Shown here: positions 5,286 to 45,005 of the stretch, one piece after another
Numbering within the stretch: position 1 is the first letter of the stretch
Layout: each line of letters opens with the position of its first letter
From: Longimicrobiales bacterium
Lineage (GTDB): Bacteria > Gemmatimonadota > Gemmatimonadetes > Longimicrobiales > Gaopeijiaceae
Length of the DNA stretch: 64,000 nucleotides
Direction of reading: 5' to 3'
NCBI GenBank assembly: GCA_965202805.1
Contig: OZ241869.1
Coordinates: 1,024,001-1,088,000 of the forward strand
Program-made: the position numbers and the translations under genes
Notes under the pieces: generated by a model
Databases searched by the model: none
Seen by the model: the letters and a program-made list of their open reading frames with translations, nothing else
Told to the model about the DNA's origin: nothing

Positions 5286-6158
5286 ATGGCAACCCGGATC
5301 GAGCGCGTGACCGTCCTGGGCGCGGGGGTCATGGGTCACGGCATCGCCCAGGTGGCGGCCATGGCCGGGCACCGGGTCACCCTCCACGATCCCGACGCGG
5401 CGGCGGCCGAACGCGGCCTGGCCCGCATCCGCGCCAACCTGGACAAGGGCGTCTCTCTCGGAAAGGTGCGCGCGGAGGAGCGGGCAGAGGCACTCGACCG
5501 CATCTCTCCGGCGCCGTCGCTGGCGGCGGCCTGCGCACGGGCGGAGCTGGTGGTGGAAGCCGCCCCCGAGCGCATGGAACTGAAGCGGAGCCTCTTCCTC
5601 GAGGTGGAGGCCGCCGCGTCTCCCTCCGCGCTGCTGGCCACCAACACCTCCTCCCTCAGCATCGACGCGATCGCCGAGGTGCTCGCCGAGCCCGGTCGCT
5701 TCCTCGGGGTGCACTTCTTCAACCCGGTGCACCTGATGGCCCTGGTGGAAGTCGTGCGCGGCAGCCGTACGGACGCGGCCGTCCTGGACGCCGGCGTCGC
5801 ATTCGCGCGCGGCCTGGGCAAGGAGCCCATCGTCGTCCGGGACGCCCCCGGCTTCGCCTCCTCCCGCCTCGGCGTGGCCCTGGGGCTGGAAGCCATGCGC
5901 ATGGTGGAGGAGGGCGTGGCCGAGCCCGCCGCCATCGACAGGGCCATGGAGCTGGGCTACCGGCACCCCATGGGGCCGCTCCGCCTCACCGACCTCGTGG
6001 GGCTCGACGTGCGCCTGGCGATCGCCGAGTACCTGCACGAGAAGCTGGGCGGAGAGCGCTACCGTCCCCCCGCCATCTTGCGACGCATGGTGGAAGAGGG
6101 GAAGCTCGGAAGGAAGACGGGCGAGGGATTCTACCGCTGGGACAAGGGGGCACGGTGA
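5286..6158 (+). CDS. 3-hydroxyacyl-CoA dehydrogenase (PaaH/Hbd-like)
   Basis: GAGVMGHGIA Rossmann motif, TNTSSLSI, HFFNPV, HPMGPLRLTDLVGLD. Confidence 0.93.
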   Translation: MATRIERVTVLGAGVMGHGIAQVAAMAGHRVTLHDPDAAAAERGLARIRANLDKGVSLGKVRAEERAEALDRISPAPSLAAACARAELVVEAAPERMELKRSLFLEVEAAASPSALLATNTSSLSIDAIAEVLAEPGRFLGVHFFNPVHLMALVEVVRGSRTDAAVLDAGVAFARGLGKEPIVVRDAPGFASSRLGVALGLEAMRMVEEGVAEPAAIDRAMELGYRHPMGPLRLTDLVGLDVRLAIAEYLHEKLGGERYRPPAILRRMVEEGKLGRKTGEGFYRWDKGAR

Positions 6159-6210
6159 CAGCCGGACGACGGATTGCGTGGGCGGGGACCGCAACGGAGG
6201 CCGTAGCCCG

Positions 6211-7086
6211 GTGACTGCGCGCGGACCTGCCGATGGCGAATCGAAGCGGAACGCCGACGGTGGACCAGCGGCCGGCGGTGGACCGGTGACAGCGTCCGCG
6301 GGCGCACCCGGGTACCAGACCATCGTGGTCGAGCGCGAGGGCACGGTCGCGACCGTGCGCATCAACCGGCCCGACAAGCTGAACGCCCTCAACGCGGCAG
6401 TGCGGCGCGAAATCGCGCAGGCGATGGACCGGCTGGCCCACGACGACGGCGTGCGGGTGGCCGTCCTGTGCGGCACCGGCGAGAAGGCCTTCGCTGCGGG
6501 GGCCGACGTCGCCGAGTTCGCGGGGCGCACTCCCGGCGAACAGCGCCAGGTCTACCGGCGCCGGCGCGTGTACGACGCGGTGGCCGCCTTCCCCAAGCCC
6601 GTCATCGCCGCCATCCACGGCTTCTGCCTGGGAGGCGGGGTCGAACTGGCGCTCGCCTGCGACGTGCGCGTGGCCGACCCGAGCGCCCGCTTCGGCCAGT
6701 TCGAGATTCGCCTGGGGCTGATTCCGGGCGCCGGCGGAACCCAGCGCCTGGCGCGGCTGGTGGGGCCGGGACAGGCCGCGCGCATCGCCCTGAGCGGCGA
6801 CGTGGTCGACGCCGCCGAAGCCCACCGCATCGGCCTCGTCGAGATCCTCGCGGACGAGGGCGAGCACCTCGCCCGGGCCCGGGAGCTGGCCGGACGCATG
6901 GCGCGCTGGAGCCCCGTCGCGCTCGGGCTGGTCAAGGAGTCGCTCAGGGCCGCCGCCGAGACCCCGCTGGCCGAGGGGCTGGCGCTCGAGAAGGAGCTCT
7001 TCCTCGCGGCCTTCGCGAGCGACGATGGCCGGGAGGGCGTGCGCGCCTTCGTAGAGAAGCGCCGCCCGGAGTTCCGCGGACGATGA
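6211..7086 (+). CDS. Enoyl-CoA hydratase/isomerase (crotonase family)
   Basis: NRPDKLNAL, AFAAGAD, GGGVELALACD, GLIPGAGGTQRL. Start uncertain: GTG 6211 (GGAGG upstream) or GTG 6286. Confidence 0.9.
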   Translation: MTARGPADGESKRNADGGPAAGGGPVTASAGAPGYQTIVVEREGTVATVRINRPDKLNALNAAVRREIAQAMDRLAHDDGVRVAVLCGTGEKAFAAGADVAEFAGRTPGEQRQVYRRRRVYDAVAAFPKPVIAAIHGFCLGGGVELALACDVRVADPSARFGQFEIRLGLIPGAGGTQRLARLVGPGQAARIALSGDVVDAAEAHRIGLVEILADEGEHLARARELAGRMARWSPVALGLVKESLRAAAETPLAEGLALEKELFLAAFASDDGREGVRAFVEKRRPEFRGR

Positions 7087-7382: not shown

Positions 7383-8951
7383 ATGGAGCGCTGGCAGCTG
7401 ATCGCGGGCCTGATCCTGGTCTATCTGGCGGTGACGCTGGGGATCGGGCTGATGGCGGGCCGGCGCGCCTCCCGGAGCGTGACGGGCTATGTAGCCGGAG
7501 ACCGTCGCTTCGGGCTTCTCGTCATGTACTTCGTCACCGGGGCGACCGTCTTCTCGGCCTTCGCCTTCCTGGGCGGGCCGGGCTGGGCCTATTCCCGCGG
7601 CGCCGCCGCCTTCTACATCCTCTCCTACGGCGCCCTCGGAATCGCTCCCTGGTACTTCATCGGGCCGCGCGCGGCCGCACTCGGGCGGCGCTTCGGCTAC
7701 GTCACCCAGGCTCAGCTGCTGGTCGGACGCTTCCCCTCCCGCTTCCTCTCGGCGCTGATGGCGGCGCTCTCCGTGGCCGCGTTCGTACCCTACATCACCC
7801 TGCAGATGCAGGGGGCGGGCATCGTCATCGAGGCGGTCACCGACGGCCACGTCCCGCTGGCCGTGGGGGCCGCGATCGCCTACGGCATCGTGGCGCTGTA
7901 CGTGCTGACCAGCGGTGTGGCCGCGGTCGGATGGACCAACACCTTCCAGGGCATCTTCATGGTCACGATCGCCTGGTCGCTCGGCATCTATCTGCCGTTC
8001 CGCCTGTACGGCGGGGTGGGAGAGATGTTTGAGCGCATCCTGGCCGAGCGCCCGGAGATGCTCTCCGTCCCGGGCCTCACCGCCGCGGGCGATCCCTGGA
8101 GCTGGGGGGGCTACTCGAGCGCCATCCTGGTGAGCGCGATCGGGCTCATGATGTGGCCCCACCTCTTCATGAAGGCCTTCACCGCGCGCGACGACCGGAC
8201 GCTCCGCCGCACCGTGGTACTGTTCCCGACCTTCCAGCTCTTCCTGATCCCCGTCTTCCTGATCGGCTTCGCCGGAGTGCTGCTGCCGGAGTCTCCTCCC
8301 GGAGCCGACTTCATCCTCCCCTTCCTCATCCTGCGCTCCGAGCTGCCCGTGCTGGTGGTGGGCCTGTTCTGCGCGGGCGCCCTCTCGGCATCGATGTCGA
8401 CCGGGGACGCCCTCATGCACGCGGCGGCATCCGTGACCGTGGAAGACGGCGTCGGCCCCTTCCGCCGGCTGAGCGACGCCTCGCAACGCCGCCTCATGCA
8501 GGCGCTGGTCCTTGTGGTGGGGGTGGTCGCGTACGGGTTCGCGCTGGACGAGGACTCCTCGCTGGTGGTGCTGCTTCTGACCGCCTACGGGATCATCTGC
8601 CAGTTCGCGCCCCCCATCTGCGCCGCGCTCTTCTGGCGGCGGGCCACCACCCCGGGCATCGTGGCCGGCCTGGTCGCAGGCTCGGCGACGGCGGTCTTCT
8701 TCTTCACCACCGGGTACCTGGGGATGGAACTGCGCCCGCTCGACCTGCACGAGGGCATCCTGGGGCTCATGGTCCACATTCCGGTGCTGGTGGGGGTCAG
8801 CCTCGCGACGCAGCCGCAGGACCGTGACCACACCGAGGCCTTCCTGAACCCGCGCGGTTCGACGGATACCGCGGGCTCCCATGGCGCCGTTTCCGCGGAT
8901 GGCGCCGTTTCCGGGGGCACTGGCCCCGCGCACGATACCCGGCGCGGATGA
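7383..8951 (+). CDS. Sodium:solute symporter (SSS family)
   Basis: Multi-TM protein; FSAFAFLGGPGWAY, YITLQMQG, WTNTFQG, GALSASMSTGD. Confidence 0.92.
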   Translation: MERWQLIAGLILVYLAVTLGIGLMAGRRASRSVTGYVAGDRRFGLLVMYFVTGATVFSAFAFLGGPGWAYSRGAAAFYILSYGALGIAPWYFIGPRAAALGRRFGYVTQAQLLVGRFPSRFLSALMAALSVAAFVPYITLQMQGAGIVIEAVTDGHVPLAVGAAIAYGIVALYVLTSGVAAVGWTNTFQGIFMVTIAWSLGIYLPFRLYGGVGEMFERILAERPEMLSVPGLTAAGDPWSWGGYSSAILVSAIGLMMWPHLFMKAFTARDDRTLRRTVVLFPTFQLFLIPVFLIGFAGVLLPESPPGADFILPFLILRSELPVLVVGLFCAGALSASMSTGDALMHAAASVTVEDGVGPFRRLSDASQRRLMQALVLVVGVVAYGFALDEDSSLVVLLLTAYGIICQFAPPICAALFWRRATTPGIVAGLVAGSATAVFFFTTGYLGMELRPLDLHEGILGLMVHIPVLVGVSLATQPQDRDHTEAFLNPRGSTDTAGSHGAVSADGAVSGGTGPAHDTRRG

Positions 8952-8969
8952 ACGGGATGCCCATCGTGG

Positions 8970-9332
8970 ATGAACCGGATGCCCGGAATGGCTGAAACGG
9001 CGGGAACGGCCGGCACGCCGGAGGAGCAGCTCGCCCGCATGCGGGATGTAATGGGCGAGGTGACCGACCGGCTCATCGCGCTGATGGGGGAACGCCGCAG
9101 GCTCGCCATCGAGATCGGCAGGATCAAGGAGGAGCTGGGACTCCCGGTCCTCGACCCCGCGCGGGAGGCTCGCGTGGTGCGTCAGGCGGCCGAGCGGGCG
9201 CGCGAACTGGGCGTGGACCCGGAGATGGCGCGCGACATCCTGTGGCGCATCATCGCATCGGCGCGCGAGGCCCAGGGAGGCCGCCGGCCGGGATGGCCCG
9301 ACCCGCCGCCGTCGGAAGGCAGCGGCCGCTAA
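8970..9332 (+). CDS. Chorismate mutase (AroQ/CM type 2), stand-alone
   Basis: LARMRD...DRLIALMGERRRLAIEIGRIK...PVLDPAREARV; start may be ATG 8988. Confidence 0.85.
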   Translation: MNRMPGMAETAGTAGTPEEQLARMRDVMGEVTDRLIALMGERRRLAIEIGRIKEELGLPVLDPAREARVVRQAAERARELGVDPEMARDILWRIIASAREAQGGRRPGWPDPPPSEGSGR

Positions 9333-26860: not shown

Positions 26861-27885
26861 GGGTCCTCGTCCCCGGACAGGATACCTCCCCCGGCGAGCA
26901 AACGCCGTGCCGCTTCGTACACCGACTCCCGCCCGCCCGCCACCCTCCGCGCCGCCTCCGCAAAGCCGCCGTCCCCCGCCACCCGGCCCAGGTGAGCCTC
27001 CAGGGCGGTGCGCACCTCCGCCCGGATGCGTGCCTCCGCGCGGGCGAGGCGGCGTGCCTCCAGCGCCCCCGAGCCCGCGAGGCTGCGGCGGTGGTCCTCG
27101 ATGGCGTCCGCGATGGCGATGATCCCTTCGCCCGCCGTGGCGACCGCAGTGAGCACGGGGGGTTCCCACCCGGCGACCGCGCTGTCCCCCGCGGTGCGGC
27201 GGCGACCCAGCCCGACCGCGTCGCGCAGCTGTCGCACCAGCGCGCGTGCACCCGGTCGATCCGCCTTGTTCACCACGAGGACATCCGCCACTTCGGCCAG
27301 CCCGGCCTTCATGGCCTGTACTTCGTCGCCCGATTCGGGGGTGAGCACCACCACCACCGTGTCGGCGGCTTCCGCCACGCCCAGCTCGGTCTGGCCGACC
27401 CCCACCGTCTCCAGGAGGATGCGGCCGAACCCGCTCCCCTCCATCAGGTCGACGACGTCGTGCACCGCTTCGGCCAGGCCGCCGCCCGCCCCGCGCGTCG
27501 CCATCGAGCGGATGAAGACGCCCTGGTCGAGCTGGAGCGGCGCCATGCGCACCCGGTCTCCCAGAAGCGCGCCCCCGGAGTACGGCGACGTGGGGTCCAC
27601 CGCGACGATCGCCACCTCCTCTCCCGCGCCGCGGAAAGCCCGGGCCAGCGCCGCCACCAGGGTCGACTTCCCAGCCCCGGGCGGCCCGGTGATCCCCGTC
27701 CGATGGGCCCGGCGGCCGCGCCCCGCCACCTGCGCCAGCAGCTCGCGGAAGCCCGGGCGCCGATCCTCGACCACCGAAATGGCCCGTGCCAGCGCCGCCC
27801 GCTCACCCGCGCCGCACCGCTCCGCAAGCGACCGCCCCGCTACGGCCGCCACGGTCCGCGCCCCCTGGCCCGCTACGGCCGCCAT
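26857..27885 (-). CDS. meaB: Methylmalonyl-CoA mutase-associated GTPase MeaB/ArgK
   Basis: [45 protein letters not shown]. Confidence 0.93.
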
Positions 27886-31390: not shown

Positions 31391-31711
31391 CTATTCTGTT
31401 TCGGCGATACCGGCCAGCTCGATCGGTGGCCGGTCGGGGAACCTCGCGATCAACGAGAGGCTGCCTCCCATTGCCTCGACGGTCTTGCGCAGCGTCGAGA
31501 GGAGGAGGTCGCTGCGCTGCTCCATCCTGGAGATGCCCTCCTGGCCGATGCCAAGTTCACGAGCCAGGCTGACTTGTGTGAGCTTACGGGCTTTGCGCAG
31601 TTCGCGCAGCGTCATCTCCTCCGCAATGAGTTCGGCAGCGCGCTCCTCAACCCGGCCCCGCCGCGTAGGGTCAAGTCCTTCGATCAGGTCGTCCACGTTC
31701 AATGCCATCAT
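31391..31711 (-). CDS. XRE-family HTH antitoxin (HigA-like)
   Basis: LRELRKARKLTQVSLARELGIGQEGISRMEQRSDLLLSTLRK; AGGAG RBS. Confidence 0.88.
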   Translation of the reverse strand: MMALNVDDLIEGLDPTRRGRVEERAAELIAEEMTLRELRKARKLTQVSLARELGIGQEGISRMEQRSDLLLSTLRKTVEAMGGSLSLIARFPDRPPIELAGIAETE

Positions 31712-31722
31712 GTTTCTCCTTC

Positions 31723-31824
31723 CTAAGCCAGTGTTGCCAAGTGTCGCTCGAAGCGCTCGTCGACCTTGCGGAGCACATGGAACTCGGGCGCGAACTCATC
31801 GGCGATCTCGACCGTCCAGTTCAT
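31723..31824 (-). pseudogene. Internally deleted RelE/HigB-like toxin remnant (33 aa)
   Basis: Own translation MNWTVEIADEFAPEFHVLRKVDERFERHLATLA* joins the typical N- and C-termini of this toxin family; sits directly upstream of the antitoxin. Confidence 0.72.
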
Positions 31825-31831
31825 CGTTGCA

Positions 31832-31851
31832 ATATGTCTTCGACGACATAT
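31832..31851. promoter_or_regulatory. Palindromic operator of the TA module
   Basis: ATATGTC-N6-GACATAT, 8 nt upstream of the toxin remnant ATG. Confidence 0.7.
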
Positions 31852-31875
31852 GCTGGCAATGGGCGGGGCATCCTT

Positions 31876-32307
31876 CTAGCGCACACTCACCCGAACAGCC
31901 GCTCTCCCAGCCCCCGCTCGCACGTGCCCATACCCTCCGTTGCCGCCCCGCATCCGCTCGAATCCTTCCACACCCACATCGATCAGGGGGATGCTCGGGT
32001 AGCCCAGTTCCTCGGCGACCAGAACCCCCAGCACGAGGATGGCGTCGGTGGAGCCGAGGACGATGGCGGCCGGTGCGACGTCGTTGCGCAGCAGCTCGAG
32101 CATGATGGCGCTGGAGGAACTGGAGCCGATCGCGCGCTCCATGACCAGGATGCGGCCGCTCAGGGATTCGCCGTATTGCGGGTGCCGGGGATCGGAGACG
32201 CGTCCGGTTTCGGGATCCACTCCTCCCCAGAAGCTGAGGGGGCGCTCGAGCACGAGCAGCCGGCCGCGGCCTTCCCCAGGGTGTACGGGGATGCCGGTCA
32301 GCTCCAC
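31876..32307 (-). CDS. Aconitase X small (swivel, DUF126) subunit
   Basis: PLSFWGGVDPETGRV.DPRHPQYGESLSGRILV...GSSSSS; start GTG 32307 (alternative 32334). Confidence 0.88.
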   Translation of the reverse strand: MELTGIPVHPGEGRGRLLVLERPLSFWGGVDPETGRVSDPRHPQYGESLSGRILVMERAIGSSSSSAIMLELLRNDVAPAAIVLGSTDAILVLGVLVAEELGYPSIPLIDVGVEGFERMRGGNGGYGHVRAGAGRAAVRVSVR

Positions 32308-32374
32308 AGGCCCTCCGCGCGCGCCTCGGTGCACCGTCGCCCGCCTCGTTCCCCCGCGAACATGGACCGCCCTG

Positions 32375-33679
32375 TCAGCTCCACAGGCCCTCGTCGCGGG
32401 TGACGCGTCCGGTCACGGCCGAACGCACGCAGTCCTCCAGGCTGCCGTAGACGACGTCGTAGCCGGTGGTGGCGGGGGTGTAGTGCGCGAACTTCCCGGA
32501 GTTGGTCATCAGCGCGCTCCCGCGGGCGGGCAGAATGGGCGCGACCACGACGCAGGTGTCGGCCACGATCTCGACCCCGGCCTCCTCGAATCGCGGCAGG
32601 CGTCCGCTCGCCTCCAGCCGCTGGACCTCGACCCTTCCCGTGCAGACGTAGAAGGGAATCCTGAAAGGCTCCTGCGGAAGCAGCCCCTCGAGGAGTGAGA
32701 ACTCGTCCCGCGAAAAGTGCGGGCTGCCCAGCGCCACCGCGTCGATCTGCTCCGTGCCCGTTGTGCTGAGCGCGTCCCGCACCCGCCGGAGTTCGCTTGC
32801 GCCGGGGGCGAGAACGGCGTCTGGTGCCTCCCCGCCGAGCGCCGCCGCGAGATCCGGGGCCTCCGGGGTGACGCCTTCGACGTGGAAGAGCCCGACCGCG
32901 CCGGACGACGCCGACGCCGCCCCCATCGCCTTCAACTGGTCCTCGGTCACGGTCTCGGGGAGTCCGGTGACGACCGCGACCCGCTCGCCGACCGTGGCCC
33001 CGAGCCAGGTGCCCAGCACCGGGTAGAACACGTCACGCTCCTTGAGCACCGGGTTGATCGCACCGGTGTCCACCACCACCGTGGCCCGCCGGTTCTCCTC
33101 GAGGTGGAGGCCGGTGCGGGGTGCGCGGCCCGCCAGCGCACAGCAGATGTCCATGAAGTCGCCGTAGCGGTTGGTGCGGCCGCCGAGCACCGAGTTGGCG
33201 AAGACCACGGCGTTGCTCTCTCCCCAGGCGACGTCCTGACCGCGCCGCGGCCGGTGCCCCGCCTGGTAGGGCGCGCAGGTCCAGGTCGGGCGGCAGCCCA
33301 GGTTCTCGTAGGCCCTCATCTGGCGGAGCGCCATCTCCCGGCGATGGCCGGCGGAACGCACCCGGCGCGGGTGGAGCAGGTCGAGGGCCCCGACGTTCAG
33401 CGTGGTGGGCACGGCCACCTTCCCGCCAAGGGAGACGAGCCGCTCGGCGAACTCGACGCCGCCGTCGCCGTGATGGAGGCAGCCGTCGATGTGGGCGGAG
33501 GCCACGGGCACCAGCTCCCGGGCCCCGAGGATGCGCGCCATGCGCACCACGATGCGCATCGCCAGCTGCGGCGCGGGACCGCGTGCGCCGCTCAGGACCG
33601 CGCGTTCTTCGTCAGAGAGGGTCGGGGAGGCCGGCGCCGTGATCACGGCCTGGTCGCGTGCGCGCATCTCAGGACTCAT
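32375..33679 (-). CDS. Aconitase X large (catalytic, DUF521) subunit
   Basis: SAHIDGC, TCAPY, WGESNAVVFANSVLGGRTNR, LGSPH, ADTC, TNSGKFAHY. Confidence 0.9.
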   Translation of the reverse strand: MSPEMRARDQAVITAPASPTLSDEERAVLSGARGPAPQLAMRIVVRMARILGARELVPVASAHIDGCLHHGDGGVEFAERLVSLGGKVAVPTTLNVGALDLLHPRRVRSAGHRREMALRQMRAYENLGCRPTWTCAPYQAGHRPRRGQDVAWGESNAVVFANSVLGGRTNRYGDFMDICCALAGRAPRTGLHLEENRRATVVVDTGAINPVLKERDVFYPVLGTWLGATVGERVAVVTGLPETVTEDQLKAMGAASASSGAVGLFHVEGVTPEAPDLAAALGGEAPDAVLAPGASELRRVRDALSTTGTEQIDAVALGSPHFSRDEFSLLEGLLPQEPFRIPFYVCTGRVEVQRLEASGRLPRFEEAGVEIVADTCVVVAPILPARGSALMTNSGKFAHYTPATTGYDVVYGSLEDCVRSAVTGRVTRDEGLWS

Positions 33680-33698
33680 TGCTCTCCGGTGAACGGCC

Positions 33699-34961
33699 TC
33701 ATTGCTTTCCGGTGAACGGCGCCCGGTCGTACACCTCCCCACCCCGCACCACGGTCCGGCAGGGGTTGGCGCCGATCCAGTAGCTCAACTCCGCCGGATG
33801 GTCCACGTCCCAGAGCGCCAGGTCCGCGCGCATGCCCGGCGAAACTACGCCCACCTCCCCCTGCAGGCCCAGCACCGGCGCGGCGTGACGCGTCATCCCG
33901 GCCAGCGCTTCCTCGGGCGTCAGGCCGAAGAGGACGCAGGCCATGTTCATCGCGAGCAGCGGGGATGTGACGGGCGACGAGCCGGGGTTCAGGTCGGTCG
34001 CGACCGCGATGGGCACGCCGTGACGCCGCAGCGCGTCCACGGGCGGCCGGCGGGACTCGCCCAGAGTGTAATACGCCCCGGGCAGAAGGACCGCAGTGGT
34101 CCCCGCGGCGGCCAGTGCACGGCAGCCGGCGTCCGTCGCGTACTCCAGGTGGTCGGCGGAGCGGGCGCGATACCGGGCGGCGAGTTCGGCCCCGCCAAGG
34201 GATGAGAGCTGGTCGGCGTGCAGGCGCACCGGCAGCCCATGGGCGGTGGCTGCTTCGAAGACGCGCGCGCACTCCGCCGGAGTGAAGGCGATGCCCTCGC
34301 AGAACCCGTCCACGGCGTGCGCGAGGCCTTCGGCGGCCGCGCGCGGGATGACCGTCCCGCATACCAGGTCGAGATAGGCGTCACGGCGGTCCTCGTACTC
34401 GGGCGGCAGCGCGTGCGCGGCGAGGAGAGTGCGCGATACGCCTGCGGCGAGGCGTTCTCCCAGGGTGCGGGCTACCCGCAGCATCCTCAGCTCGGTGTCG
34501 ACATCAAGGCCGTAACCGGACTTTATCTCAACCGTGGTAACGCCATGCGCGACAAGAGCTTCAAGTCTCCATGACGATGTATTGTAGAGCTGCGTTTCGG
34601 TCGCTGCCCGGGTCGCCGCCACGGTCGAACGGATGCCGCCACCAGCCCGTGCGATCTCCTCGTAGCTGCTGCCCCGCAGGCGCATTTCGAATTCACCCGC
34701 GCGCGTACCCGCAAATACGAGATGGGTGTGACAGTCGATGAGCCCGGGGGTAAGCCACCCACCTGCTCCGTCCAGGGTGCGGGAAGCGCCCGCAGTCGCC
34801 TCGCGGGGAGCCGCGCGCGCAGCCCCAACCCACGTGATTCTCCCACCGGCGACCGCCACCAGTCCATCGCGCACCACGCCGTATGCCTCGCCCGTGTCCG
34901 CCATGGTGGCGACATGGACGTTGCGGATCAGCAGGTCCGGCGCGCCGGGCTTCCCGTTCAG
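33699..34961 (-). CDS. hutI: Imidazolonepropionase
   Basis: [47 protein letters not shown]; start uncertain (CTG 34961 after GGGAGG, or ATG 34904). Confidence 0.93.
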
Positions 34962-41677: not shown

Positions 41678-43306
41678 ATGACGGATCACGACAAACAGAC
41701 CAGCCCGCGCGCGCGCGCCATCGGGTTCTGGCTCGGGGCGGGCTGCTTCCTGCTGCTGCTCGCCTTCCCCATCGATCCGGGCAACCTGCCCGCGAGCCGC
41801 CTCGCCGCCGTCGCGAGCCTGATGGCGATCTGGTGGGTGAGCAACGCGCTTCCGCTCTTCGCGACCGCCATTCTTCCGCTGGTGCTCTTCCCCCTGCTGG
41901 GCATCATGTCCGGGAACGATGTCGCGCCGGTCTACTTCAACAGCACGATCGTCCTCTTCCTCGGAGGGTTCATGATCGCGCTGACGATGGAGAGGTGGAA
42001 TCTCCACAAGCGCATCGCCCTCGGCATCATCCACGCGGTGGGCGGCGGACCTCCGCGCATCATTCTGGGCTTCATGGTGGCGGCCGCCTTCCTCTCCATG
42101 TGGATTTCCAACACGGCCACCGCGGTGATGATGGTGCCGATCGGGCTCGCGATGGTGCTCCAGGTCGAGGAGACCGCCGGCGCCCGGCAGTCGCGCACGT
42201 TCACCATCGCCCTCATGCTCGGCATCGCGTACGGCTGTTCGATGGGCGGGCTGACGACGCTGGTCGGAACCCCTCCCAACCTGTCCTTCCAGCGCATCTT
42301 CCAGATCATCTTCCCCGAAGCGCCTCCCATCGACTTCGGCACCTGGATCGTGCTGGGCCTGCCGATCGGGGTCACGATGCTCGCGGTGGCCTGGCTGCTG
42401 CTCACACAGGTCCTCTATCGCCCATCGCCGGAAATCCGGATCGAGCGGGATGTGCTCGAGCGCGAACGCGCCGGCCTGGGCCCGATCTCCTTCGAGGAGC
42501 GCTCCGTGGCGACCGTCTTCGCCATGACCGCGCTGCTCTGGGTCTTCAGGCGGGATCTGGAGCTCGGTTTCGCCACCGTTCCCGGCTGGTCGAACCTCCT
42601 CCCCTTCCCCGGGATGATCGACGACGGCACCGTGGCGATCGCGATGGCGTCGGTGCTGTTCTTCATCCCGACCCGCAACCGGGCGCCGCGCGATGCCGGC
42701 GTCAAGGCTCCGGACGCGACCTCGCGGTGGCGGGCGCTGATTCGCTGGGCGACCCGTTTCGGGACCGCGAACCGCGTAATGGGCGCCGAGGTGATCCCGC
42801 GCCTGCCCTGGAACATCGTCCTCCTCTTCGGCGGAGGGTTTGCGCTCGCGGCCGGCTTCCAGGGCACCGGGCTCGCCAACATCATCGGGAATCAGTTCCA
42901 GGGACTCGGCGGGCTGCCGGACTTCGTCGTCATCCTCCTGGTGTGCCTGACCCTCACCTTCCTCACCGAGCTGACCAGCAACCTGGCCACCACGGAGATG
43001 ATCCTCCCCATCCTCGCCTCGGTGGCGGTGCTCACCGGGATGAACCCGCTGATGCTGATGGTTCCGGCGACGCTGTCCGCCTCGTGCGCGTTCATGATGC
43101 CGGTCGCGACGCCTCCCAACGCCATCGTCTTCGGCAGCGACCGCATTTCGGTTGGGGAGATGGCGCGCGCGGGCATCTTCCTGAACCTGATCGGGGCGCT
43201 TGTGATCGCCACCCTTGTGCTGACGCTGGGAGAGACCGTCTTCGGCATCGAATCGGGCGTGATGCCGGAGTGGGCGACGGAGATGGCGGGCGAGGTCGGC
43301 GGCTGA
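41678..43306 (+). CDS. SLC13/DASS family sodium:anion symporter, copy 1
   Basis: LFLGGF, WNLHKRIAL, SMWISNTAT, GTPPN, LLFGGGFAL, ELTSN, PVATPPNAI. Confidence 0.93.
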   Translation: MTDHDKQTSPRARAIGFWLGAGCFLLLLAFPIDPGNLPASRLAAVASLMAIWWVSNALPLFATAILPLVLFPLLGIMSGNDVAPVYFNSTIVLFLGGFMIALTMERWNLHKRIALGIIHAVGGGPPRIILGFMVAAAFLSMWISNTATAVMMVPIGLAMVLQVEETAGARQSRTFTIALMLGIAYGCSMGGLTTLVGTPPNLSFQRIFQIIFPEAPPIDFGTWIVLGLPIGVTMLAVAWLLLTQVLYRPSPEIRIERDVLERERAGLGPISFEERSVATVFAMTALLWVFRRDLELGFATVPGWSNLLPFPGMIDDGTVAIAMASVLFFIPTRNRAPRDAGVKAPDATSRWRALIRWATRFGTANRVMGAEVIPRLPWNIVLLFGGGFALAAGFQGTGLANIIGNQFQGLGGLPDFVVILLVCLTLTFLTELTSNLATTEMILPILASVAVLTGMNPLMLMVPATLSASCAFMMPVATPPNAIVFGSDRISVGEMARAGIFLNLIGALVIATLVLTLGETVFGIESGVMPEWATEMAGEVGG

Positions 43307-43373
43307 CCGCCGGCCGGACGACCGCAGCCCGTCGGACCGCCGGCAGGCCCGGGCTCGCCCAGGGGGCGACACC

Positions 43374-45005
43374 ATGACGGATCATCGACCACCGACCAGC
43401 CGCCGGACGCAGGCGATCGGCTTCTGGCTCGGCCTGGGCTGCTTCCTCCTGCTGCTGGCCTTTCCGGTGGATGCCGCCAACGCGCCCGCAAGCGGCCTCG
43501 CCGCCGTCGTGAGCCTGATGGCGATCTGGTGGGTGAGCAACGCGCTCCCGCTCTTCGCGACCGCCATTCTTCCGCTGGTGCTCTTCCCCCTGCTCGGCAT
43601 CATGTCCGGGAATGAGGTCGCGCCCGTCTACTTCAACGGCACGATCGTCCTCTTCCTGGGAGGGTTCATGATCGCGCTCTCCATGCAGAGGTGGAACCTG
43701 CACAAGCGCATCGCCCTGGGCATCATCCACGCCGTGGGCGGGGGACCGGCGCGCATCATTCTCGGCTTCATGGTGGCGGCCGCCTTCCTCTCCATGTGGA
43801 TCGCCAACACCGCCACCGCCGTGATGATGGTGCCGATCGGGCTCGCGATGGTGCTCCAGGTCGAGGAGACCGCCGGCATCAGGCACTCGCGCACGTTCAC
43901 GGTCGCCCTCATGCTCGGCATCGCCTACGCCTGTTCGATGGGCGGTGTGACGACGCTGGTGGGAACCACTCCCAACCTGTCCTTCCAGCGCATCTTCCAG
44001 ATCATCTTCCCCGAAGCGCCCCCGATCGAGTTCGGCACCTGGATGGTCCTGGCCACGCCCGTCGGGATCACGATGGTCGCGGTGTGCTGGTTCATGCTGA
44101 CCCAGGTCCTCTATCGCCCATCGCCGGAAGTGCAGATCGACCGGGACGTCCTCGCGCGCGAGCGCGCCGGGCTCGGTCCGATCTCGTTCGAGGAACGCTC
44201 CGTGCTGATCGTCTTCGCCATCACCGCGGTGCTGTGGATCTTCCGGCGGGACCTGGAACTCGGCTTCGGAACGATTCCGGGCTGGTCCAACCTCCTTCCC
44301 TTCCCCGGGATGATCGACGACGGCACCGTGGCGATCGCCATGGCGGCGGTCCTCTTCTTCATACCGACCCGGAACCAGCCGCCGCGCGGGCCGACCGGGG
44401 CGACGGCCGCCCGCGTCCCCGGGTGGCTGAAGCCGCTGCGCCGGGCAGCCCGTTTCGCAAGCGCAAACCGTGTCATGGGCGCGGAGGTGATCCCGCGTCT
44501 GCCGTGGAACATCGTGCTCCTCTTCGGAGGAGGCTTCGCGCTCGCGGCCGGTTTCACCGACACCGGGCTCGCGAACATCATCGGGAATCAGTTCCAGGGA
44601 CTGGGCGGGCTGCCGCCCTTCGTCGTCATCGTCCTGGTGTGCCTCACGCTCACCTTCCTGACCGAACTGACCAGCAATCTGGCCACCACGGAGATGATCC
44701 TCCCCATCCTGGCTTCGGTGGCGGTGGTGACGGAGATGAATCCGCTCACGCTGATGCTCCCCGCGACACTGTCCGCGTCGTGCGCGTTCATGATGCCGGT
44801 CGCGACGCCGGCCAACGCCATCGTCTTCGGCAGCGACCGCATATCGGTCGGAGAGATGGCGCGCGCGGGCATCCTGCTGAACCTGATCGGGGTGGTCGTG
44901 GTCACCACGGTGGTGATGCTGCTGGGAGAGGCGGTCTTCGACTTCGACCGGGGGGTCATGCCGGACTGGGCGACGGGGGCCGCCGGGGGCGAGGTCGGCG
45001 GGTAG
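43374..45005 (+). CDS. SLC13/DASS family sodium:anion symporter, copy 2
   Basis: Colinear tandem paralog of copy 1 with SMWIANTAT, GTTPN, PVATPANAI. Confidence 0.93.
   Translation: MTDHRPPTSRRTQAIGFWLGLGCFLLLLAFPVDAANAPASGLAAVVSLMAIWWVSNALPLFATAILPLVLFPLLGIMSGNEVAPVYFNGTIVLFLGGFMIALSMQRWNLHKRIALGIIHAVGGGPARIILGFMVAAAFLSMWIANTATAVMMVPIGLAMVLQVEETAGIRHSRTFTVALMLGIAYACSMGGVTTLVGTTPNLSFQRIFQIIFPEAPPIEFGTWMVLATPVGITMVAVCWFMLTQVLYRPSPEVQIDRDVLARERAGLGPISFEERSVLIVFAITAVLWIFRRDLELGFGTIPGWSNLLPFPGMIDDGTVAIAMAAVLFFIPTRNQPPRGPTGATAARVPGWLKPLRRAARFASANRVMGAEVIPRLPWNIVLLFGGGFALAAGFTDTGLANIIGNQFQGLGGLPPFVVIVLVCLTLTFLTELTSNLATTEMILPILASVAVVTEMNPLTLMLPATLSASCAFMMPVATPANAIVFGSDRISVGEMARAGILLNLIGVVVVTTVVMLLGEAVFDFDRGVMPDWATGAAGGEVGG

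Follow-up and report, generated by a model that had tools for sequence, protein, structure and literature searches.

Two expanded gene junctions in a hutI–acnX operon of a Longimicrobiales bacterium (GCA_965202805.1, contig OZ241869.1, positions 1,024,001–1,088,000; the full 64,000-nucleotide (nt) stretch is referred to as the window) are probably both tandem duplications of coupled stop/start junctions, expansions of a kind filtered by selection for termination-reinitiation. The genes lie on the minus strand in the order hutI, acnX (large), acnX (small), and each of the two junctions carries a short open reading frame (micro-ORF) that overlaps the end of the upstream gene with its start and the start of the downstream gene with its end, an arrangement termed here a relay. 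From this layout we infer that ribosomes cross both junctions via the micro-ORFs. Comparisons with relatives, across the 4.02 Mb genome (G000; 68% G+C) and between orthologous junctions suggest that selection keeps only junction expansions preserving coupled translation. A first-pass annotation of the window had offered the relays as either a mutational footprint filtered by selection or a tuning device; its coordinates, repeats and peptides are as it gave them, apart from the corrections below, and its gene names agree with the profile matches (hutI above the TIGR01224 cut-off, AcnX with PF04412 and the AcnX swivel with PF01989; Table 1).

Duplicated stop/start junctions in the hutI–acnX operon

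At junction 1, between hutI and the large-subunit gene, a 23-nt unit occurs twice in tandem. The duplication is real and the frame MRPFTGEQ* was correctly identified in the first-pass annotation, though the copies are not exact (22 of 23 positions identical). Translation of hutI ends at the TGA at 33701-33699, the first of the two stops here, which the ATG at 33702 overlaps; the TGA of MRPFTGEQ* in turn overlaps the ATG at 33679 that opens the large-subunit gene. The first copy agrees around the stop with the single junction of two congeners (G013 and G005), and the sole mismatch of the second copy (33684) makes a GGAG ahead of the ATG at 33679. When contigs of four runs from four studies were compared, two (X3, record 12; X4, record 23) crossed junction 1 with both copies and a third (X10) was without the 23 nt, with 21 other letters differing over ~1 kb. 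The junction-1 duplication is young and polymorphic within the species, one conspecific strain being without it.

At junction 2, between the two acnX genes, there is an exact 19-nt repeat with copies 77 nt apart, and the GTG of the first copy opens a 28-amino acid (aa) frame that closes in the second. Repeat and open frame stand as first described, with the correction that the duplicated unit is the full 77 nt; the further claim that the relay stop overlaps the true small-subunit GTG does not hold. That GTG lies 7 nt ahead of where the stop begins, so that the two ORFs overlap by 10 nt, which is also the geometry of the single junction in 16 congeners. All four hand-over points at the locus are thus overlaps, two of them ATGA and two of 10 nt. 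Between the 19-nt copies lies a 58-nt spacer, identical to the 5' end of the small-subunit gene at 29 of 58 positions in register (shuffles, 18.4; p ~0.0007) in a gap-free alignment, with a weaker signal when gaps are permitted (p 0.03–0.06). Its best nucleotide matches are the small-gene starts of the genus itself (24–34 of 58, where other loci averaged 21.6 and reached at most 33), and its G000 and G013 versions are identical at 54 of 58 positions with the frame open in both. The junction-2 unit has no second copy in the genome, and in 18 congeners it was met only at the orthologous junction, plus one weak 52-nt match in G007. On the strength of the identity in register, the absence of gaps, the single copy and the best matches within the genus, junction 2 is read as a decayed 77-nt tandem duplication common to G000 and one relative (G013). 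The spacer keeps a GCG codon seen in most congeners, and the five-genome clade of G000 has CCN there; this one codon hints that the duplication may predate the clade and have been lost later in three of its members. Three short-read contigs (X4, X8 and X10) cross the junction-2 insert without indels, the frame staying open; with the X3 and X4 contigs across junction 1, these assemblies from other studies rule out an assembly artefact.

Table 1. Positions of the genes, junction copies and relays, numbered within the window.
Feature	Position	Strand	Basis
hutI, imidazolonepropionase	33699..34904	-	TIGR01224 451 bits, cut-off 298; ORF
Junction 1 first copy, 23 nt: hutI 3' end with ATGA	33698..33720	-	sequence comparison
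Junction 1 second copy, 23 nt	33675..33697	-	sequence comparison
Relay micro-ORF 1, MRPFTGEQ*, ATGA overlaps at both ends	33676..33702	-	ORF reading
Aconitase X large subunit (type II, split form)	32375..33679	-	PF04412 456 bits
Junction 2 first 19-nt copy: large-subunit 3' end and putative ancestral small-subunit start	32374..32392	-	sequence comparison
Relay micro-ORF 2 (28 aa), overlapping the large gene (at its start) and the small gene (at its end) by 10 nt each	32298..32384	-	open ORF
58-nt spacer, apparent decayed copy of the small-subunit 5' end	32316..32373	-	alignment; single copy in genome
Junction 2 second 19-nt copy; GGAGG at 32316-32312 ahead of the true GTG 32307	32297..32315	-	sequence comparison
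Aconitase X small (swivel) subunit	31876..32307	-	PF01989 98 bits; NF003046 match starts at residue 1

Relatives were expected to have single junctions, and mostly they do. Among the 18 same-genus loci showing junction 2 the insert is confined to G000 and G013, the other 16 having the direct 10-nt overlap, as do all six loci with both genes in other genera. A wider survey of junction 2 covered 80 loci (three of them duplicating loci of the genus set), and of the 78 with both genes 69 were direct, 8 relay and 1 neither; the relay count is permissive, allowing wide offsets and including chance cases, and a clear duplicated junction was seen only in L173, with a separate 50-nt duplication of the 10-nt junction and an open 19-aa relay. 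At junction 1, the 16 loci with hutI upstream comprised 10 direct, 4 relay and 2 uncoupled junctions, the relays representing three unrelated micro-ORFs of 8 aa (G000), 11 aa (G013 and G005) and 24 aa (G012). Coupling is therefore kept at 14 of 16 junctions 1 and, counting direct and relay states together, at all but one of the 78 junctions 2. Pairing of the second start with the anti-Shine-Dalgarno (anti-SD) sequence is weak at junction 1 in G013, G005 and G012 (-3.0 to -3.6 kcal/mol).

In three related loci (L177, L179 and L181), ORFs of 9–11 aa bridge the AcnX large–small junction and end on different overlaps, one of 4 nt and two of 8 nt, so that the relay there survived a change of phase. 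The first-pass statement that a spacing of 2 modulo 3 (mod 3) is the sole relay phase accordingly applies to copies of one junction, since ends with an 8-nt overlap (L177 and L181) allow other spacing.

Phase of junction expansions in the genome and between orthologues

A spacing of about 20 nt nearly abolishes coupling, 38 nt costs 80–100% of it in Escherichia coli, and for re-initiation the final 15 nt of the upstream gene are enough (PMC10666635). Because coupling falls so steeply with distance, the gaps of 19 and 67 nt at the two junctions would uncouple the genes and a bridge would matter; because the final 15 nt are enough, a functional second junction could be restored by the copies of 23 and 19 nt. 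Duplication would preserve the upstream context of the old start, at which ribosomes ending the upstream gene could still re-initiate, and where the unit is 2 mod 3 and the frame open they would terminate on the copied stop overlapping the true start and re-initiate a second time. A unit of 0 mod 3 would yield an N-terminal extension, and one of 1 mod 3 would leave the gene uncoupled and be mostly purged by selection, which the statistics show for the genome as a whole but not for this locus. The peptide sequence would be irrelevant, the micro-ORF being a tolerated by-product that keeps coupling alive, and the stronger SD sites gained at the second starts would help here.

Using a self-trained gene caller, 3049 genes were predicted in G000, with 346 co-directional neighbours at -4 spacing. 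Gapped co-directional junctions were scored for a start overlapping the upstream stop and for a stop overlapping the downstream start, with spacings of 2 mod 3 assigned to the relay phase, 1 mod 3 to the incompatible phase (phase 0) and 0 mod 3 to the in-frame phase. Across all 1401 junctions the two features co-occurred in the relay phase (105/53/169/230; odds ratio 2.7, p = 3e-7) and not in phase 0 (24/47/139/197; odds ratio 0.72), and exact relays numbered 92 compared to 59.8±6.0 by permutation. When junctions with an in-frame start near the upstream stop were removed, 83 of the remaining 1091 were relays (43.3±5.2 expected, maximum 62 in 2000 permutations), with the relay phase again enriched (94/40/155/176; odds ratio 2.7, p = 5.5e-6) and phase 0 not (24/43/128/172; odds ratio 0.75). 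The excess persisted without the SD term in the caller and in high-scoring genes alone, and the relays counted include neither focal junction. For CTG, a non-start control, the phase effect (79/164 vs 42/111) was much below that for ATG (31/48 vs 4/17) and GTG (48/74 vs 16/43). A part of the congener G006 (1.6 of 4.8 Mb) held 24 relays at 405 junctions, against 12.4±2.9 expected. Indel errors or deletion bias were rejected as the source of the excess because the one-sided classes would then rise too, yet these are flat across phases (40 vs 43); in addition, 20 junctions are of relay type in both G000 and G006.

The frame rule was also examined in 526 orthologous junction pairs, 44 of which were direct in one genome only. 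In 19 of these 44 the start at the upstream stop was retained, and these comprised 17 relays, 1 junction in phase 0 and 1 in phase 2 (17 to 1, p ~1e-4). A tally of repeat spacings mod 3, as advised in the first-pass annotation, leaned the same way in G000 on small numbers: among 11 junction duplications, seven were at 2 (all open relays), three at 0 and one at 1 (7 to 1, p ~0.07), compared to 7, 5 and 7 at stops without a start. A coarse first repeat scan (score >=15, 638 repeats, 21 rows with a stop, some loci repeated) gave 11, 5 and 5 for 2, 1 and 0 mod 3. Recognisable duplications account for a minority of relays, so other routes contribute (frame changes of N-terminal extensions and moved stops).

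The lone counter-example among the 11 also lies in the window (8949-8985, +): an ATGA junction there is imperfectly duplicated with a unit of 22 nt, hence 1 mod 3, and G011 has a direct overlap at this place. A candidate relay VRP* (24683-24670, -) is formed by a GTGA repeated after 11 nt before an AtuA-family gene (a single GTGA in G011), and a candidate 19-aa relay ORF between co-directional genes (6156-6220, +) is not retained in G011. The ABC1-kinase/MeaB junction (27836-27884, -) has an exact 16-nt repeat, 33 nt apart, that copies a stop codon with an upstream ATG.

Of the two options first offered for the locus, a mutational footprint filtered by selection finds support in single junctions in relatives, in independent expansions that end as relays and in the enrichment of the relay phase both genome-wide and among orthologues. 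The broader proposition that serial termination-reinitiation via disposable micro-ORFs is a routine, selected layer of operons, amounting to ~40 junctions above chance (some 2% of co-directional neighbours) with gaps of 6–200 nt, is advanced tentatively, its probability falling a little short of even.

Several observations weigh against selection for coupling. About half of the relays in the genome are expected by chance, and start positions come from a self-made gene caller. G006 has a raised odds ratio of ~2.5 in phase 0 too (p = 0.08). Relay junctions whose length changed there show a weak avoidance of phase 0 (6 of 31, compared to 30 of 85 other junctions, p = 0.12), and the G006 orthologues of 17 G000 relays are uncoupled. 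The more distant G026 and G051 (400 kb each) showed no significant excess (0 vs 0.8 and 4 vs 2.2), a comparison of low power that used the G000-trained caller. At junction 1 itself, G001 and G006 are uncoupled, the G006 start being almost without an SD (-1.1 kcal/mol). The SD of relay starts is no stronger than that of chance starts (p = 0.97), and at both G000 junctions the true start pairs better with the 16S tail than the relay start (-6.6 vs -3.5 and -10.0 vs -6.4 kcal/mol), so that de novo initiation could carry the true starts.

Neutral, regulatory and foreign origins

The observations on SD strength bear most on the leading competitor, a neutral footprint at the locus, in which the duplications uncoupled the genes, compensatory SD gains led to de novo starts and the micro-ORFs are incidental, each with a one-in-three chance of phase, regardless of what applies to the rest of the genome. 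This is unlikely on balance, though it deserves serious weight. Of 69 possible single changes, the substitution in the second copy of junction 1 strengthens anti-SD pairing the most (-3.5 to -6.6 kcal/mol), the second start of junction 2 reaches -10.0 in G000 and -9.1 in G013 compared to ~-6.4 ancestrally, two congeners live uncoupled at junction 1, and both repeats would fall at 2 mod 3 by chance in 1 of 9 cases. A stronger SD at a second start can mean either that re-initiation has improved or that the start no longer depends on the relay; since re-initiation, too, is aided by an SD (PMC12548453), such a gain fits a relay as well. The relay starts moreover retain their full ancestral upstream context, relays arise independently at both junctions even with a weak second SD, and the genome-wide and orthologue tests speak against a neutral origin.

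Far less probable is an adaptive tuning device, with the extra stop and restart selected to lower or regulate the levels or stoichiometry of the AcnX subunits. Identity between G000 and G013 is 93% in the junction-2 spacer, much as in its coding flanks, and there is no indel (4 differences in 58, with ~9 expected from four-fold sites, p = 0.044), against a neutral baseline that is thin (one 10.6-kb contig; two non-coding stretches 56% identical and two partly aligned ones 93–97%); the frame is also open in strains X4, X8 and X10. However, the insert is found in 2 of 18 congeners only and the junction-1 duplication is present or absent among strains, and selection could hardly favour added attenuation between the subunits of what is probably a heterodimer. 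Neither spacer holds a promoter- or terminator-like site, an Rfam search of the spacers gave 0 matches at E<=1, and no stable RNA fold was found in them, the folds being weaker than shuffles (z +1.2 to +1.9); these fold and Rfam results likewise led to the rejection of an integron attC/attI short ORF or a structured cis-regulatory RNA. The peptide changes freely, and relay frames score as non-coding (mean codon score -0.23 vs 0.46 for genes; 4 of 62 above 0.2). With peptides that turn over and score non-coding, a polymorphic junction 1 and a relay-start SD no better than chance, the tuning option of the first-pass annotation finds no support. A functional small protein was rejected on the non-coding scores and the free turnover, there being three unrelated peptides at junction 1 and two at junction 2, where those of G000 and G013 differ at 3 of 28 residues.

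Slightly less probable still, junction 2 might record the insertion or recombination of foreign DNA (a MIRU-like dispersed element or a foreign acnX-small 5' end) flanked by a 19-nt target repeat, as the spacer is 50% diverged from its neighbour yet differs by 7% between G000 and G013 and its translation resembles the GR..F.GE starts of distant small subunits; against this stand the lack of any second copy in the genome or, beyond the orthologous junction and the weak G007 match, in the 18 congeners, and best matches to the genus's own small-gene starts. Other genomic matches exist for 8 of 55 relay spacers, all of them partial. A foreign donor was sought among 100 small-gene starts and none was found, and a dispersed mobile element was rejected in the absence of copies of the units and with those few partial matches.

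Gene context, known systems and biological meaning

The 5' end of hutI is uncertain, lying at 34904 or as far as 34961, and AcnX-large has a second in-frame ATG at 33667 with a ribosome-binding site similar to that of 33679 by SD energies. The large (PF04412) and small (PF01989) subunits are separate polypeptides, as in aconitase X type II, and the split gene pair resembles the two-gene type IIa of bacteria (PMC5144071, PMC8184944). The archaeal enzyme is a heterodimer (PMC5144071, PMC8184944), and the two subunits here probably form one as well. In three congeners and other genera (L016-L018, L020-L026) hutI is not found upstream of acnX-large within 1.5 kb, and the hutI–acnX link therefore looks lineage-specific. 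The bacterium is a sponge dweller, and sequencing runs containing the stretch are mostly sponge metagenomes; two RNA runs have a share of 0.05 of the words.

Beside the small-subunit gene, an HTH_3 antitoxin-like gene (31391-31866, -) is preceded by a short ORF without a Pfam match and by a promoter-like site at 31859-31831; the genes are possibly a truncated toxin-antitoxin pair. Further away are two tandem paralogues of PF00939 sodium:sulfate-symporter-family transporters (41678-45005, +) and a bacterial gene of the GPP34/Golgi phosphoprotein 3 family (PF05719; 36700-37353, -) downstream of diaminopimelate epimerase.

The overlap geometry of junction 1 is that of ATGA/TGATG termination-reinitiation (Huber et al. 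2019, PMC6728339; Huber et al. 2023, PMC10666635), and the -4 spacing dominates the genome; here, in contrast, two serial hand-overs would pass through a non-coding micro-ORF, and the 10-nt overlap of junction 2 lies outside the geometries covered in the available part of PMC10666635. A close parallel is with MIRUs (mycobacterial interspersed repetitive units), small intergenic units with an ORF coupled to the downstream gene that is thought to make insertion tolerable (Brown and Wade 2025, PMC12548453). As in a MIRU, compared here by its description, the ORF of the unit overlaps a downstream start, with the -4 spacing present at junction 1 (ATGA) and a 10-nt overlap at junction 2; MIRUs, however, form a dispersed, apparently mobile family, while the present units are single-copy local junction duplicates. 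Integron ORF-11 and attC short ORFs likewise carry ribosomes across an intergenic stretch by termination-reinitiation independently of the peptide (PMC8876359), yet they are part of recombination sites, and ORF-11 has an SD of its own from which it is initiated de novo, whereas the present frames start at the upstream stop and appear to originate by duplication. In upstream-ORF delivery and bicistronic designs (PMC12548453) and the axe-txe minigene (PMC8708949) a short ORF also acts in cis on translation of the next gene, but with coupling at its 3' end only, rather than at both ends inside an operon. An enterobacterial survey of intergenic ORFs reports many near one neighbour, doubly coupled ones not being treated in its accessible text (PMC11188072). 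In the open-access literature, taken without supplements, no genome-wide account of doubly coupled intergenic micro-ORFs or of junction-duplication relays was found. Older work exists on the phase bias of near-overlaps. That a short ORF can deliver ribosomes is a principle already described for MIRUs, integrons and bicistronic designs, and the relay by junction duplication adds a further form of it.

By itself the locus carries modest weight; selection for coupling becomes testable through the excess across the genome and the 17 to 1 result for orthologues. Because single, relay and uncoupled alleles of one junction occur naturally, the locus lends itself well to such a test. In this genus, operon junctions constantly expand and contract, and relay micro-ORFs would be a way for an operon to survive the expansions. 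The accompanying frame rule, under which lengths of 0 or 2 mod 3 would be tolerated and those of 1 mod 3 purged, is applicable to any set of genomes. Some seemingly separate genes may still be coupled. If the broader proposition of a routine relay layer holds, counting short overlaps alone would underestimate the share of coupled genes, and each expansion would give rise to a translated peptide between genes, from which new small genes could develop.

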